Notes under the pieces: model-generated
What the model was told of the DNA's origin: nothing
What the model saw: only the letters and a program-made list of their open reading frames with translations
The model's database searches: none
Translations under genes and position numbers: made by a program
Part shown: positions 40,030-46,827 of the stretch, in pieces
Layout: the number at the start of each line of letters is the position of its first letter
Position numbering within the stretch: position 1 is the first letter of the stretch
NCBI GenBank assembly: GCA_944320495.1
Contig: CALUHR010000005.1
Location: 128,001 to 192,000, forward strand
Origin: Candidatus Methanomethylophilaceae archaeon
GTDB lineage: Archaea > Thermoplasmatota > Thermoplasmata > Methanomassiliicoccales > Methanomethylophilaceae
Direction: 5' to 3'
DNA length: 64,000 nt

Positions 40030-40097
40030 ATTGCACGCGGGGGGGGGGGTCCGCTGTCTTCGGCTGTCCTCCCCGTCCTCCGTTCGGAGGGAAAATG
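40030..40097 (+). promoter_or_regulatory. Shared adhesin 5' leader with G11 tract (40039-40049) and CCTCC/GGAGG hairpin
   Basis: Near-identical to 42875-42944. Confidence 0.75.
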
Positions 40098-42737
40098 AAC
40101 AAACAGATGATGACAGCCATCGTTCTGATGGCAATACTGTCTCTGACGGGAATTCTGGCCGTCGCTCCAGCGATTGATGCGGAGGATGTTGCTGACAATC
40201 AGGCCCATGACGTCCAGAAAACTGTTCTGGACAGCGAATACCTCGCATCCATCGGGGATTCGATGAACTATTACCGGTTGACTGGGGATTTCATTCTCCA
40301 GGACGATACTCTTGACCTAGGAGGCAAATCGATCCAGTTCCAAGGGGATTGCTCCCTTGACCTTAATGGGAAGAGGCTTCAGGCCAACGGTAACGTGATT
40401 TCGGTTCAGACCAAGGACTCTGCTGGAACCACGTACATATATGACAGTTCAACCGAGGGTAACGGCACGATTTACTCATCGATTACATCAACAAGTAGCG
40501 GTGCCATCGTGAATACGGGGAACCTTGTCATCCAGAGCGGTATCATCGAATCCACTGGAATCACCGTGTTCAACAACAACTATGGCGGAACGATCTCAAT
40601 ATCTGGGGGGACTCTGAAGGGGAGTACTGCACTTGCGATGTGGAAGGGCGATCTCACCGTCAACGGAGGAAACTTCGAAGGAACAAACTGCGGAATCGAG
40701 GTTAGAGGCTGGGGAAGCAACAACGCCTCGGCAACAATTAATGCTGGTACGATCGAGGCACCGGCCGCCATCGTAGTAGAAGGCGGAAGGGGTTCGACAG
40801 AGCTCCTCGTGAATGGCGGCACTATCACCGGCACCAACTACGGAATCTCCGGCAACGGAACCTATGACAATACGGACATTACAATTGCTGGAGGAACAAT
40901 ATCCAGCAGCAACGCACCCGCGATCTATCATCCCCAGAAGGGCAACCTGACCATCAAAGGGAACGACACTACCATCACCGGACCCACGGGAGTGTTGTTC
41001 TGCGGTAGCGGAAGCATCGACATATCCGGAGGTAAGATCACTGGAACTGGTGCATATAACATGGATGATGCAGAATCCAGCGGAAACCTCCAGACAGGTT
41101 CCGCGATTTCTGTGGTTACCCGCGACGGATACTACGAAGATGGTGATACAACCACGCTCACCATTACAGGAGGAGAATTCGTCAGCCAGCAATCCAGCGC
41201 CGTTTCCGAGATGAGATACAGCTACGACGAGACGGCCGGTGCCATCGTCGGTTCCGACAATTCCATGAGGTCCATCGTCTCCAGCATATCCATCGGGGCG
41301 GGAACCTTCAAGGGTGCCGAAGGCAGCGATGCCATCGATATTGACGATGCGGGCGATGAAACGAGCATCAGCGGGGGATCGTTCTCCAGCGATGTGAGGG
41401 ATTACTGCGAACCCGGATTCGCCCCCGCCCAGGACGTGAACGGCAACTACGTAGTCTCCGAGGATCCAGACTATGTTTATGGCGTCACCGCCGCCGAGTT
41501 CCTAGCCACCGGCTCGTACTCCGACGACGGAAAGACCGTCACCTTCTTCCTCGACAGGGACTACAGGATCACCGACGGCACCATCTACTTCGCCGATCTG
41601 GCCGAGCAGGGATACGAGTCCATCTCCATCGCCGGGAACGGACATACGATTTACGGCGGCCTAAGGTTCGATGCGGACTACGAGGACGGCGAGAGCCAGA
41701 GCTATTCCGTGACCATCTCCGACCTCAACCTGGATGGCAAGGAAATCGCTGACTGGGGATACGGCATCGTGATCCAGAACCAGAGCCCCGTCTCCAACCC
41801 CGCCCGCACCATAGACTTCACCATGACCGGCGGATCGGTCAGGAACTTCGATTCCAAGGGCATCTACCTGATCAACGTCCAGTCCGTGTACATCCAGGGT
41901 GCCGAGATCGAGAACTGCGCCACCGTCCCCCACTACCACGACGAGGCCAACGAGGACTTCAAGTACTACGTCAGAGGGGACTACGCGGTGGACATCGACG
42001 TCACCGGCATCGAAGGCGCGGAGATCAGGATCGACGACGTCGCCTTCTCCGGCAAGACCGGAGCGGTCGCCGCCCTCAAGATCGCCCAGCGCGGAGGCGC
42101 TGGCGACAATCCCGACACCTGGGGCGACGCCTCCATCTACGGCGTCATCCTGAACGGGCTGGACTTCTCCGCCTCCGAGGCACCGCGTGACATCATGCTC
42201 GGCAGCGAGCCCAACATCACCGGAGACGACGAGGAGGAGCTCAGGGACTACAACTCCGCCTTCACCGTCCTGCTCTCCGCCAGCGGCGAGACGGTCCTCT
42301 CCGTCTGGGGGGACGACAGGAACGGCGACAGGAACCTGGACGTGACCCTCTCCGACGGGTCCATGCTTGGCACCTCCTGCGAGACCAGCGGCGGGGAGCA
42401 CGGGAAGATCGGCTTGGAGCTTCTCTCCGGCTCCGCGAAGGTCTCCGGAGTGCTGGGGCCGAACATGTCACTGAAGGCCGACGAGGATGCGGTCACGTTC
42501 GAGGACTTCGCCGACGAGAGCGAGGGCGGACTCGAGATCGTCGAGCCCGAGCCGGAGCTCCCGCCCTTCATACCGTTCCCGCCCGAGCAGGGTGGGGACC
42601 CCGTGGAGGTCTACCCGAGCGGGGACAGCGGATCCTCCGACGACAGCGACGACACCCTGAAGGTCGTGGCCGTGGCCGCCGCAGCGGTCATCGCGGCCAT
42701 ACTGGCCATCGTCCTTGCGTCCACATACCGCAAGTGA
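40095..42737 (+). CDS. Adhesin-like surface protein (beta-helix-like repeats, C-terminal TM anchor)
   Basis: Signal peptide; G/T/I/N-rich repeats; tail LPPFIPFPPEQGGDPVEVYPS...VVAVAAAAVIAAILAIVLASTYRK. Confidence 0.88.
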   Translation: MNKQMMTAIVLMAILSLTGILAVAPAIDAEDVADNQAHDVQKTVLDSEYLASIGDSMNYYRLTGDFILQDDTLDLGGKSIQFQGDCSLDLNGKRLQANGNVISVQTKDSAGTTYIYDSSTEGNGTIYSSITSTSSGAIVNTGNLVIQSGIIESTGITVFNNNYGGTISISGGTLKGSTALAMWKGDLTVNGGNFEGTNCGIEVRGWGSNNASATINAGTIEAPAAIVVEGGRGSTELLVNGGTITGTNYGISGNGTYDNTDITIAGGTISSSNAPAIYHPQKGNLTIKGNDTTITGPTGVLFCGSGSIDISGGKITGTGAYNMDDAESSGNLQTGSAISVVTRDGYYEDGDTTTLTITGGEFVSQQSSAVSEMRYSYDETAGAIVGSDNSMRSIVSSISIGAGTFKGAEGSDAIDIDDAGDETSISGGSFSSDVRDYCEPGFAPAQDVNGNYVVSEDPDYVYGVTAAEFLATGSYSDDGKTVTFFLDRDYRITDGTIYFADLAEQGYESISIAGNGHTIYGGLRFDADYEDGESQSYSVTISDLNLDGKEIADWGYGIVIQNQSPVSNPARTIDFTMTGGSVRNFDSKGIYLINVQSVYIQGAEIENCATVPHYHDEANEDFKYYVRGDYAVDIDVTGIEGAEIRIDDVAFSGKTGAVAALKIAQRGGAGDNPDTWGDASIYGVILNGLDFSASEAPRDIMLGSEPNITGDDEEELRDYNSAFTVLLSASGETVLSVWGDDRNGDRNLDVTLSDGSMLGTSCETSGGEHGKIGLELLSGSAKVSGVLGPNMSLKADEDAVTFEDFADESEGGLEIVEPEPELPPFIPFPPEQGGDPVEVYPSGDSGSSDDSDDTLKVVAVAAAAVIAAILAIVLASTYRK

Positions 42738-42874
42738 TGACCAAACGAGGTCCACGAGACCTCACCTTACCGCCCCTCCGGGGGCGGACATCCTTCACGG
42801 TCTATGATTCTCTGACCATTCACCACAGATACCTTGTTTAACCCATACCGCGATGCGAACCCTCAGTGCTTCAG

Positions 42875-45900: not shown

Positions 45901-46652
45901 CCGTGTCCGGAGGTACCTTCAACAAGACCTTCGACAGCAAGTACATGGCACCCGGAGTCACCATGGCCCAGAACCCCGACGGCACCTACGGCGTGGTCGA
46001 ATCCATAACCATCACGTTCGTCGACATCGACGGAACCACCCTCAAGCAGGTAGACATACCCAAGGGATCCTCGGTCCCCGCCGAGGAGATCCCCGCGTTC
46101 GGCACCGCCCCCGAGAACTACGCGTACCACTGGAACAGCGAGGACGTGGTCGACGTCTATCCGGACATCGATGTGTTCTATACGGACACGACCCTCACCG
46201 CGGCCCTTCACATAGAGCCCTTCGAGATAACCGTCGAGGTCTCCGGAAACACCGCGACTGCGGTGTTCGATGTGCCCGTGGATGGCTGCACCGTCAACGG
46301 ATACCTCTGGTTCTACGTGAACGGGGAATCGTTCGAGGATGTCGGATCCGACGCCTCCGTCACCCTTGACAGGGACGGACTGTACTATGTCCAGGTGGAG
46401 GTGGAGGATTCCGAAGGCATCGTCGGCTACGGTATAGGCTACACAGAGTACACCGCCGGATCGGAGCTTCCGCCCTTCATCCCCTTCCCGCCCGAGCAGG
46501 GAGGGGACCCGGTCGAGGTGTATCCGAGCGGAGACAGTAGTTCGTCGTCCGACGATGGAGACGGCACCCTGAAGGTCGTGGCCGTTGCGGCCGCGGCCGT
46601 CATCGCGGCCATTCTCGCCATCGTCCTCGCGTCCACCTACCGCAAGGACTGA
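42942..46652 (+). CDS. Large adhesin-like surface protein
   Basis: Signal peptide; beta-helix-like repeats (xxIxGGxF); same C-terminal tail and anchor. Confidence 0.88.
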   Translation: MNSKTVAIVATAVAFILVLCVVVPVSEESEAADYNINDSQSLKDNISTITNAIASQSATSATYNIKITSDIELDSLNLDFSGNRTEAKKYTINLDIGTKEDPKTLTLAGTETGSGITIANNGLDSITINIRYGNIIDNRTPTTGPMSTITVQGPGDGTGTTNATLLNMSVSSTVPSTSESSCILSVSDGASVTLNSAVLKTNGNDGTVGVSMEPNNGSKTTTLKTYFDTLVESSAQGILTEVGKTSISMSGNTHIVSTGSNAIQQDGGKLTVSSAKVVVEGADYAISKNAGDLAVSGGLIKGTIGAIENTGTNKISTTLSQSGGVFSSDISDACNITSEYSVVRVGDRFYGSYEGEEPVASIGDAKYSSISYVNAALHSSDADSFEVTLLSNTSSSTFTPLNDVTINLNGYNLALTRSDALVVDGFSVEITGTGTLSLSALSILGSDDPNAENYSTLKIGENVTVKVTNAIIIGEADRPHGYGVVVDVNGKIDASTEQGSEPPQGITVNGTLKDTTGNTPVINVNGEILAVNNSYAIYAAGYATWNIYGKVSGGTGIEIRAGNVNVYDGSTITSTAEGFTEKKNPDGPTMIGAGIAVSQHTTNLPIALNIEGGDISGPYALYEKDLEDDTGTEDIGMEVTGGTFTGTTASVSSENVKDFLAGGTFLKQNGNETPVADTSLNESDLLAGDRTIDEDGGVTLANAVAKVGSVEYGTIADAVAAAKNGQIVTLLKDTAESITISGKDITLDLGTYTLTNTANEHTITVESGATLTIQGNGTVDNISHAKAAVSNEEGGTVTLEGGSYTRSKEAGMSSNDNGGNSYYNILNQGTMTIKAGVTVSQKGVYSSLIDNGWFDTDGMTGDHEAKLTIEGGTFTGGKYTVKNDDYGTVEIYGGTFTNTAQATVLNWNEMTIDGGTFDGTGAGAVIVNGHYADSSVGSLTVKKGQFNGTVGIKDGGYGTGTTILVEGGDFDVSGDVFSFTGGEPDVSVSGGTFNKTFDSKYMAPGVTMAQNPDGTYGVVESITITFVDIDGTTLKQVDIPKGSSVPAEEIPAFGTAPENYAYHWNSEDVVDVYPDIDVFYTDTTLTAALHIEPFEITVEVSGNTATAVFDVPVDGCTVNGYLWFYVNGESFEDVGSDASVTLDRDGLYYVQVEVEDSEGIVGYGIGYTEYTAGSELPPFIPFPPEQGGDPVEVYPSGDSSSSSDDGDGTLKVVAVAAAAVIAAILAIVLASTYRKD

Positions 46653-46754
46653 TGGATAAACGAGGTTCTCCGAACCTCCCTTACCGCCCCTTCGGGGCGG
46701 TTTCTCACCATACCCTCTTAAGACCCCATAGCACGATTCTCCCCCCGCATGAAA

Positions 46755-46827
46755 ATGCACGCGGGGGGGGGGCGACCGATTCTGTCTTCCCTCCTCGTCC
46801 TCCGCATAAAAAGGAGGGAAACGAATG
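46755..46827 (+). promoter_or_regulatory. Diverged adhesin 5' leader with G10 tract (46763-46772) and CCTCC/GGAGG hairpin
   Basis: TGCACGC-G10...TGTCTTC...CGTCCTCCG...GGAGGGA. Confidence 0.7.

Follow-up and report, generated by a model that had tools for sequence, protein, structure and literature searches.

A genus-wide family of poly-G leaders as a candidate slippage-set switch of surface-protein expression in archaea

The window, a 64,000-nt stretch of a Candidatus Methanomethylophilaceae genome (contig CALUHR010000005.1, positions 128,001 to 192,000), comes from a chicken-gut methanogen and carries on its forward strand three genes for surface proteins, each preceded by the motif TGCACGC running directly into a G tract. 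The first gene (W1, 40095-42737) encodes an 880-aa beta-helix surface protein with a signal helix and a C-terminal anchor, the second (W2, 42942-46652) a paralogous surface protein of 1236 aa with a C-terminal anchor module of the W1 type, and the third (W3, 46825-48333) a 502-aa surface protein that combines a GLUG motif with the same type of anchor. The tracts, G11 in W1 (40039-40049), G12 in W2 (42884-42895) and G10 in W3 (46763-46772), lie 45 to 52 nt 5' of the start codons at 40095, 42942 and 46825, and downstream of each comes a pyrimidine-rich stretch and then a CCTCC-loop-GGAGG hairpin. In W1 the pyrimidine-rich partner region spans 40050-40081 and includes a distal block, TCCTCCCC (40067-40074), and a proximal anti-Shine-Dalgarno (anti-SD) CCTCC (40077-40081) opposite GGAGG at 40086-40090, with the Shine-Dalgarno (SD) GGAGG(G) and the ATG together occupying 40086-40097. 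The corresponding pyrimidine-rich regions, anti-SD arms, SD arms and SD-to-ATG segments lie at 42896-42927, 42923-42927, 42932-42936 and 42932-42944 in W2, and at 46773-46803, 46799-46803, 46813-46817 and 46813-46827 in W3. From GATTGCACGC through GGAGGGA, a single G of the tract is all that separates the W1 and W2 leaders, and GCACGCGGGGGGGG has three exact occurrences. A sequence-only reading of this DNA had described both the shared arrangement and the near identity of the first two leaders, and both descriptions hold, the former down to its coordinates.

Upstream of each tract lies an inferred TATA-like box: TTTGAACT in W1 (39992-39999), overlapping the end of the upstream gene, and TTTAACCC in W2 (42837-42844), both 47 nt 5' of the tract, and CTTAAGAC in W3 (46717-46724), 46 nt 5' of it. 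Between box and tract, W1 has a putative start-site region, AGTGC, with a small 5' hairpin (GUGC/GCAC; 40024-40036), and W2 has the same elements at 42865-42881; the W3 hairpin (46747-46758) is built from GCAU/AUGC, both arms being unlike those of W1 and W2. Genome-wide, SD-like motifs peak at -15 to -11. All three proteins possess an N-terminal hydrophobic helix and a common C-terminal membrane anchor, and the structural model of the W1 protein is all-beta (pLDDT 87), its best fold matches being right-handed beta-helix proteins (PL6 lyases, tailspikes, pertactin and autotransporter passengers). The designation "adhesin" used in the sequence-only reading is borne out in part, by the membrane anchor and, for the W1 model, the beta-helix fold matches, and binding is a putative function.

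The genome carries two further leaders of the W1-W3 type. Across the genus searched (the Ca. Methanoprimaticola/UBA71 group, 62 species), a G tract of G9 or longer followed by GGAGG and ATG occurs at 60 sites in 23 species, and 52 of these sites are W1-W3-type leaders; the total for the genus is at least 52, and as these leaders are kin, counts over them overstate independence. The reversed pattern gave 0 to 1 matches per genome. A stricter leader pattern had no reversed-pattern match in 174 genomes of the family and one true match outside the genus, and in 401 genomes of the class it found elsewhere only random-looking matches. The cassette runs from a TATA-like box, often through a small 5' hairpin (weakly supported across the family, mean z -0.8), to an uninterrupted G9-G14 run, a loop, a pyrimidine block, a purine spacer and an anti-SD CCUCC, which in the predicted fold closes a hairpin onto the GGAGG ribosome-binding site directly 5' of the ATG. 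Within the G9-G14 range G11 is the commonest length, and most assemblies show G10-G12; two additional family-like leaders have G6 only, so a long run is not indispensable, and no interrupted tract was seen among family-like leaders. The 20 nt 5' of the SD hairpin are 85% pyrimidine, compared with 49% in other GGAGG-led genes, and an anti-SD (CYTCC within 16 nt) is present in 46 of the 52 leaders versus 5 of 85 genes in the G000 background, those five presumably being the genome's own family leaders. Poly-C on the sense strand at equal distance gave 5 unrelated matches, against 52 for poly-G. These comparisons establish the cassette and its conservation, together with the predicted folds described below. 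The N-terminus is hydrophobic in each of the 52 proteins encoded downstream, and the leader is more strongly conserved than the signal-peptide coding sequence; the best explanation is that family leaders precede genes that are transcribed separately and encode large, membrane-anchored proteins of the cell surface with a beta-helix fold.

TATA-like 8-mers cluster at -52 to -34 from the tract (51 leaders), the box type being given by the tRNA promoters of the genome, which yield YTTWAWAW-type boxes. Therefore the tract is probably transcribed, as part of a 5' leader downstream of the likely promoter, and transcription would start near the 5' side of the tract. This agrees with the sequence-only reading, which had placed the tract in the leader and not upstream of the promoter, as far as promoter position can be judged from sequence. 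A promoter-spacer switch of the fim, opc or porA type was considered and judged improbable, the tract starting 34 to 52 nt past the start of the TATA-like box, beyond where the start site would be expected. More broadly, the tract might act at the level of DNA or transcription (initiation, escape or early elongation), with the RNA folds incidental, which we consider unlikely though worth weighing: uspA1 mRNA of Moraxella is low at 8-10 G and high at 11-12 G (PMC7302503), other long G runs of this genome adjoin TATA-like boxes (C1:82856, C11:15930), and in a minority of leaders another A/T-rich 8-mer sits 15-17 nt 5' of the tract. However, the best TATA-like boxes of the family are the more distant ones, so the tract does not lie between core promoter elements, and a DNA-only role leaves unexplained the strict sense-strand G, the conserved pyrimidine partner and the anti-SD.

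At the RNA level, 51 of the 52 leaders have a predicted fold that pairs six or more G's of the tract with the pyrimidine block, in a helix of about 10 bp, and at least four of the five SD bases are paired in 44. About 87% of leaders have a predicted probability of less than 0.1 that the SD is open, versus 11% of 83 other GGAGG-led genes, in line with the earlier suggestion that the hairpin hides the SD, which is thus predicted to be sequestered by the anti-SD. The RNAalifold consensus also chooses the G:pyrimidine helix, with exchanges between GC and GU and few broken pairs. No register-specific covariation was found in this helix (shuffled partners pair 94.5% versus 94.4% observed, and slid partners 85-92%), and therefore the evidence for it is compositional; a register-free helix is one that covariation cannot prove. 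The models nevertheless support the C/U-rich segment, which every leader carries in cis, as the conserved partner of the G run.

Several indirect observations suggest that the tracts are prone to slippage. G/C runs of the genome number 365 at length 6, 9 at length 7 and 4 at length 8, then 1, 4, 9, 6 and 1 at lengths 9 to 13, a bimodal distribution in which lengths 9-13 account for 21 runs across 1.77 Mb; G8 words occur 35 times versus 9.3 +/- 3.7 in shuffled sequence, and long G runs are present in 129 of 174 family genomes. A contig from a related strain (L025) is 99.2% identical to locus A over 1238 nt, its sole indel being G10 versus G11 in the tract, one of only two comparisons behind strain-level polymorphism, and one G separates the otherwise identical W1 and W2 leaders; among 11 pairs of leaders whose flanks are at least 80% identical, 8 differ in tract length. 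Neither MutS_V nor NucS_C was found in any of 35 near-complete genomes of the genus. The tracts share sequence hallmarks of contingency loci, namely an uninterrupted and over-represented repeat, placement before surface genes and, over few comparisons, length polymorphism, and slippage may occur within populations. Public runs were covered as Logan contigs, which are interrupted at each tract. G11-12 runs of the same genome also stand at frame-critical places before four anchor segments.

We propose that the genus-wide cassettes form a slippage-set switch of surface-protein expression, a reading that we hold to be evenly balanced between true and false. The G run would slip at replication, and because neither MutS nor NucS repair is detectable in this lineage, the run length of each gene would drift heritably and independently of other genes. 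Transcription would place the run close to the mRNA 5' end, where it would pair with the pyrimidine block in a register-free G:C/G:U helix; the length of the run would set the reach of this helix and thereby how the mRNA folds beside the ribosome-binding site. At the common lengths of G9-G11 the ribosome-binding site would be locked and translation low, whereas in the predictions a longer run intrudes on the anti-SD and sets the site free, and helix length may additionally alter mRNA processing or stability. Our literature search found no archaeal description of such a G-tract leader, as the sequence-only reading had also stated, and we regard poly-G leaders as strong candidates for switching expression through a repeat in archaea.

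An effect of run length on expression is so far suggested by folding models. The mean probability of an open SD rises from 0.07 at native length to 0.15, 0.26 and 0.38 with one, two and three additional G's; W1 is predicted closed at G11 and W2 bistable at G12. In about 60% of leaders a longer run invades the anti-SD and opens the SD, mostly at G13-15 and above native lengths, with the onset 1-3 G above native in 24 of the 52 and further above in others; in nine of the 52, no lengthening opens it, and release is likewise absent from the prediction for leader B. Native length and onset length are uncorrelated (r = -0.22), and the predicted thresholds are sensitive to the 5' end assumed for folding, that of W1 moving from G12 to G16. 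The earlier idea that the tract pairs with the C-rich anti-SD and frees the SD is therefore reproduced in silico at longer runs and falls short at most native lengths, and folding of length variants reproduces the opening itself, without a link between its onset and the lengths that occur. A rheostat in which G length tunes SD access gene by gene is plausible and not more, because the SD opens mostly at G13-15 and the result varies with the assumed 5' end.

The same predictions could be read as describing a leader that does not switch at all, in which the G run serves as a permanent structural component of an element that represses or stabilizes constitutively, and the range of 9-14 reflects neutral drift. 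Predictions keep the SD closed at almost every native length, the helix needs no particular register and G10-G12 prevails in most assemblies, yet we think this account improbable: a pure homopolymer is a costly route to a helix, no interrupted tract was seen among family-like leaders, tract length is the fastest-changing feature of near-identical leaders, and similar runs occupy frame-critical positions elsewhere in the genome. Scarcely different in probability is a role for the G:pyrimidine helix in processing or stability, with a double-strand-specific nuclease cutting or sparing it by length and so setting the mRNA level. In hmw1A the repeat folds in cis into a 5'-UTR hairpin that RNase III cuts (PMC12721329). 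The predicted helix of about 10 bp would be a candidate target, and an RNase III-domain gene is present in this genome (C13:398092-398478, E 5.7e-24) and in all but one of 34 near-complete genomes of the genus, versus none of four archaeal control genomes. Classical RNase III substrates are longer than such a helix, however, RNase III also occurs in genera that do not have the leader, and the conserved anti-SD hairpin would go unexplained.

Far less probable is that the tract lies within a leaderless upstream frame or N-terminal extension, with a GTG or ATG close to the transcription start as its first codon, and acts by frame; AGTGC (ATG in W3) near the inferred start and several stop-free frames of the pyrimidine-rich leader would allow it, but 8 of the 52 leaders have no upstream start codon, start positions and frames vary, and most lie out of frame with the main gene. 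Sequencing or assembly artefacts can be dismissed almost entirely, for although two-colour chemistry yields poly-G artefacts and some G10 matches in relatives sit at contig ends, the tracts are internal, flanked by unique sequence, shared in homologous position by 23 species whose assemblies come from different groups, and seen again in an independent metagenome contig.

The slippage-set switch that we propose has parallels in several known systems. Campylobacter jejuni poly-G contingency loci, Bordetella fim and the Neisseria opc/porA promoter tracts lie mostly inside ORFs or between promoter elements. Like them, the archaeal tracts belong to a small genome of a lineage without classical mismatch repair, in which about 20 long G/C runs make up a separate length class at surface-structure genes; here, in contrast, the tracts stand downstream of an inferred TATA box, in a structured leader. 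RNA thermometers and translational riboswitch platforms are SD-sequestering switches triggered by temperature or a ligand, and share with the cassette an anti-SD/SD hairpin right before the start codon and a competing upstream pairing partner, whereas here the trigger would be a heritable change in DNA length. In Moraxella catarrhalis uspA1, a G(n) tract 29 bp upstream has a length that is tied to expression and differs between strains (PMC7302503); the likeness lies in a poly-G of 6-12 a few tens of bases 5' of an adhesin ORF, with graded high and low expression in uspA1, and the difference in an effect there on mRNA level, the paper describing no cis pyrimidine partner or SD hairpin. In the leader of Helicobacter pylori tlpB-hp0102, the G-repeat pairs with the RepG sRNA, with graded repression at 7-12 G and activation at 14 or more (PMC8295292). 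The comparison with tlpB made in the sequence-only reading carries over in that a variable G run in a (here inferred) 5' UTR is predicted to pair with C/U-rich RNA, before genes with surface or envelope functions of a host-adapted microbe, and the archaeal control would, by analogy, be graded and not on/off; it fails in that the partner there is the loop of a trans-acting sRNA and here, in the folds, a conserved block of the same leader beside an SD-sequestering hairpin, in a multi-gene archaeal family of at least 52 leaders known from sequence and predicted folds alone. Only tentatively, and as a reading less likely than not, we put forward a cis-encoded archaeal counterpart of RepG, a heritable G-run dial whose register-free helix would compete with the anti-SD and give each gene its own translational setting. 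If true, the leaders and the anchor-proximal G runs of neighboring genes would let a gut methanogen vary its surface combinatorially and at random, and no RNA switch driven by a repeat would have been described earlier in the archaeal domain. The closer cis precedent is hmw1A of Haemophilus influenzae, where a 5'-UTR repeat hairpin is processed by RNase III and expression depends on repeat number (PMC12721329). There a heptamer repeat forms the pyrimidine arm of a 122-nt hairpin, whereas here the G arm is the repeat, the helix is about 10 bp, an anti-SD/SD hairpin adjoins and processing is a candidate role; common to both are a simple sequence repeat upstream of a surface-protein (in hmw1A, adhesin) gene, an RNase III-domain gene in the genus, and a cis hairpin of a pyrimidine-rich and a G-rich arm in which, as predicted for all but one of the archaeal leaders, the repeat pairs with an arm of its own leader.

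Each of the three large surface-protein genes in the window (W1, W2 and W3) is a separate unit with its own leader, in which a long G run directly follows the heptamer TGCACGC: G11 at 40039-40049 (ATG 40095) in W1, G12 at 42884-42895 (ATG 42942) in W2, and G10 at 46763-46772 (ATG 46825) in W3. This order is as an earlier sequence-only reading described it, and the pyrimidine-rich stretch and CCTCC-loop-GGAGG that it placed after each run are present (40077-40090, 42923-42936 and 46799-46817); the first two leaders, which it called nearly identical, differ by a single G from GATTGCACGC through GGAGGGA. 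There are three exact occurrences of the 14-mer GCACGCGGGGGGGG, G8 words number 35 compared to 9.3 +/- 3.7 in shuffles, and TATA-like boxes (TTTGAACT, TTTAACCC and CTTAAGAC) lie 46-47 nt before the tracts. No Rfam family matched the leaders, either at gathering or at E <= 1.

The W1-W3 products have in common a C-terminal module (LPPFIPFPPEQGGDPVEVYPS...VVAVAAAAVIAAILAIVLASTYRK), and each gene is followed by paired GC-rich hairpins, the first of GAGGTC..GACCTC type and the second CCGCCCC..GGGGCGG (42740-42790, 46655-46700 and 48335-48385, respectively), which are a conserved 3' module accompanying the C-terminal anchor segment. Pfam and NCBIfam returned no domain in W1 or W2 and only GLUG in W3. 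Some of the more than 1,000 relatives of W1 carry BspA-type LRR or PEGA domains. The predicted structure of W1 (pLDDT 87, pTM 0.76) has an all-beta body flanked by one helix at the N-terminus and one at the C-terminus, with right-handed beta-helices (PL6 lyases, tailspikes, pertactin and autotransporter passengers) as its top fold matches; given these helices and matches, it is reasonable to label a W1-type product a putative adhesin-like surface protein. Across W1-W3 (40095-48333, about 2,600 codons) there are zero in-frame CGA codons.

The genome (GCA_944320495.1; 1.77 Mb, 61.6% G+C, 90.6% complete) contains mcrA, and its McrA shares 94-98% identity with several records from uncultured Methanomassiliicoccales, including Ca. 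Methanoprimaticola hominis Mx06 (95%) and UBA71 (94%), all Methanomethylophilaceae; metagenomes with a matching stretch were from chicken gut and bird. We set the limits of the leader family by pattern searches with reversed-pattern controls. The family pattern (a base other than G, G9+, 25-55 nt, GGAGG, 3-10 nt, ATG) matched 23 of 62 species of the genus, against 0-1 reversed matches per genome, and gave 60 unique sites, 52 of them with the same design. Their tracts comprise four G9, 13 G10, 21 G11, 10 G12, three G13 and one G14, and in all 52 cases the downstream protein has a hydrophobic N-terminus. A stricter pattern, with zero reversed matches in 174 family genomes, was restricted to the genus among those genomes apart from one match in a family genome outside it, and in a class-wide sample of 401 genomes it gave only random-looking matches beyond the genus. 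Searching with the 3' half of the leader, free of the tract, recovered the same leaders and two look-alikes with only G6, with no interrupted runs among them; sense-strand poly-C at the same distance yielded five matches, all unrelated.

Conservation is higher in the leader than in the signal-peptide coding sequence. The related-strain metagenome contig L025 (OJMH01010494.1) has the same leader and promoter and diverges after codon 4, contigs from two sequencing runs have loose ends at 40102 and 40108, a few codons past the W1 ATG; in these samples, unrelated coding sequences follow the promoter and leader. Such joining to different coding sequences marks the leader as a recombination boundary where surface-protein cassettes swap.

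Upstream regions of 45 tRNA genes carry an A-rich element and a YTTWAWAW box ending ~25 nt before the mature 5' end. In 51 leaders, similar 8-mers cluster 52-34 nt before the tract, are nearly absent between -33 and -18, and form a minor further cluster at -17..-15. Assuming the usual archaeal distance from TATA box to start, these boxes suggest that transcription begins about 4-22 nt upstream of the tract, and the G run would therefore lie close to the mRNA 5' end. A putative 5' hairpin is frequent in the leaders but weak (mean z -0.8, with a stem of 4.7 bp compared to 4.1 bp in shuffles).

From the tract to the Shine-Dalgarno (SD), the leaders are 74% pyrimidine, and the 20 nt preceding the hairpin loop reach 85%, compared to 49% in other GGAGG-led genes of the genome. 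Genome-wide, SD-like motifs peak at -15..-11, making GGAGG a plausible ribosome-binding site. Of the 52 leaders, 46 have an anti-SD CYTCC no more than 16 nt from the SD; in the genomic background 5 of 85 genes do, presumably the family's own five leaders. At native length, partition-function folding predicts that, of a mean of 11.0 tract G's, 9.6 pair with the pyrimidine block (six or more in 51/52 leaders), and that four or more of the five SD bases pair with the 16 nt upstream in 44/52. About 87% of leaders have a predicted SD accessibility, P(SD open), below 0.1, compared to 11% of 83 other GGAGG-led genes, which average 0.42. The RNAalifold consensus is a G:pyrimidine helix with 4-22 one-sided GC<->GU changes per pair and 1-8 broken pairs. 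Because any G pairs with any pyrimidine, support for this helix is compositional, and pairing (94.4% observed, 94.5% with shuffled partners, 85-92% in slid registers) is uninformative on covariation.

Folded from AGTGC, W1 and W2 have predicted P(SD open) of at most 0.01 at G11 or shorter and 0.4-0.9 at G12-13. W1 (G11) is predicted closed, and W2 (G12) forms a mixed ensemble in which the SD is free in the best fold; five extra 5' bases move the W1 threshold from G12 to G16. Over the 52 leaders, mean P(SD open) rises from 0.07 at native length to 0.15, 0.26 and 0.38 with one, two and three added G's. The proposal that the G run could free the SD by pairing with the C-rich anti-SD is thermodynamically possible in silico, and so is length-dependent release, but predicted onset falls mostly at G13-15, above native length, and nine of 52 leaders do not open at any length folded. 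We rejected the idea that native length is tuned to the switch point (native vs onset, r = -0.22). A rheostat of this kind predicts the low state for most copies in assemblies.

Tract length differs between close relatives. L025, the one related contig in a metagenome scan whose remaining matches were due to chance, is 99.2% identical over 1,238 nt to locus A, a further leader of the same design in this genome, with nine substitutions and one indel, which lies in the tract (G10 vs G11). In 11 pairs of leaders the flanks are 80% or more identical, and eight of these pairs differ in tract length, by 1-4. MutS_V, MutL and NucS_C (NucS/EndoMS) domains were not found in this genome, nor MutS_V and NucS_C in any of 35 near-complete genus genomes, three being single contigs. 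Logan contigs on 39500-47500, from four runs in three studies, all break at the tracts and are uninformative on length heterogeneity.

G/C run lengths in the genome are bimodal, with counts from length 5 to 13 of ~3,400, 365, 9, 4, 1, 4, 9, 6 and 1. Long runs total 21, and five lie in leaders of the same design, namely the three in the window, locus A (C5:83098, G11) and locus B (C5:105826, G11). Four more, of G11-G12, lie inside neighboring paralogous surface-protein genes, just 5' of their C-terminal anchors (58524-58535, 59848-59858, 61158-61168 and 62169-62180; region 58524-62180), where tract length would set whether the membrane anchor stays in frame. Runs at C1:82856 (G12) and C11:15930 (G11) directly follow A/T-rich TATA-like sequences and may form a second, promoter-proximal class. 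Elsewhere in the window, a G9 run (17408-17416) sits at the junction of ORF 17064-17426 and a downstream frame encoding VLDPFLGSGTT...GIEIDP, a DNA-methyltransferase-type motif, possibly a methylase gene frame-switched there, and an intergenic G10 run (31522-31531), ~90 nt upstream of ORF 31621-32805, is without the pyrimidine or anti-SD design. Runs of at least 10 G's occur in 129 of 174 family genomes.

An mRNA-processing route like that of hmw1A is conceivable. A gene with an RNase III domain occurs in this genome (G000:C13:398092-398478), in 33 of 34 near-complete genus genomes and in 72 of 90 near-complete family genomes, compared to none of four archaeal control genomes. The tract may instead act on transcription in a uspA1-like way, an alternative that leaves the sense-strand G, pyrimidine partner and anti-SD unexplained. 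Less likely are a neutral structural leader, a sequencing or assembly artefact, and a leaderless upstream frame; we rejected the last, as a uORF or N-terminal extension, on the ground that start codons are not conserved.

Repeat-driven phase variation is a central strategy among host-adapted bacteria. The leader design, readable from sequence alone and recurring at least 52 times in 23 species, is predicted to link a mutable DNA tract with leader structure in the mRNA and with a locked ribosome-binding site. If length-dependent SD release is true, gut methanogens would vary their surface gene by gene, with bearing on how they colonize animal guts, are recognized by the immune system and resist viruses there; the leaders would offer a natural length-variant series for archaeal translation initiation and mRNA structure, and users of such assemblies should be aware that only one state per switch is captured.

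A 2025 review named archaeal loci of repeat-driven phase variation as future work (PMC11868660), and our literature search, in agreement with the sequence-only reading, found no archaeal case. The candidate novelty is that a homopolymer contingency tract is combined with an SD lock and a pyrimidine partner in cis, in many copies across a gene family of a host-associated archaeal genus. The closest systems are bacterial: tlpB/RepG, where the C/U-rich partner acts in trans (PMC8295292), hmw1A, whose repeat forms a hairpin in cis that RNase III cuts (PMC12721329), and uspA1 (PMC7302503).
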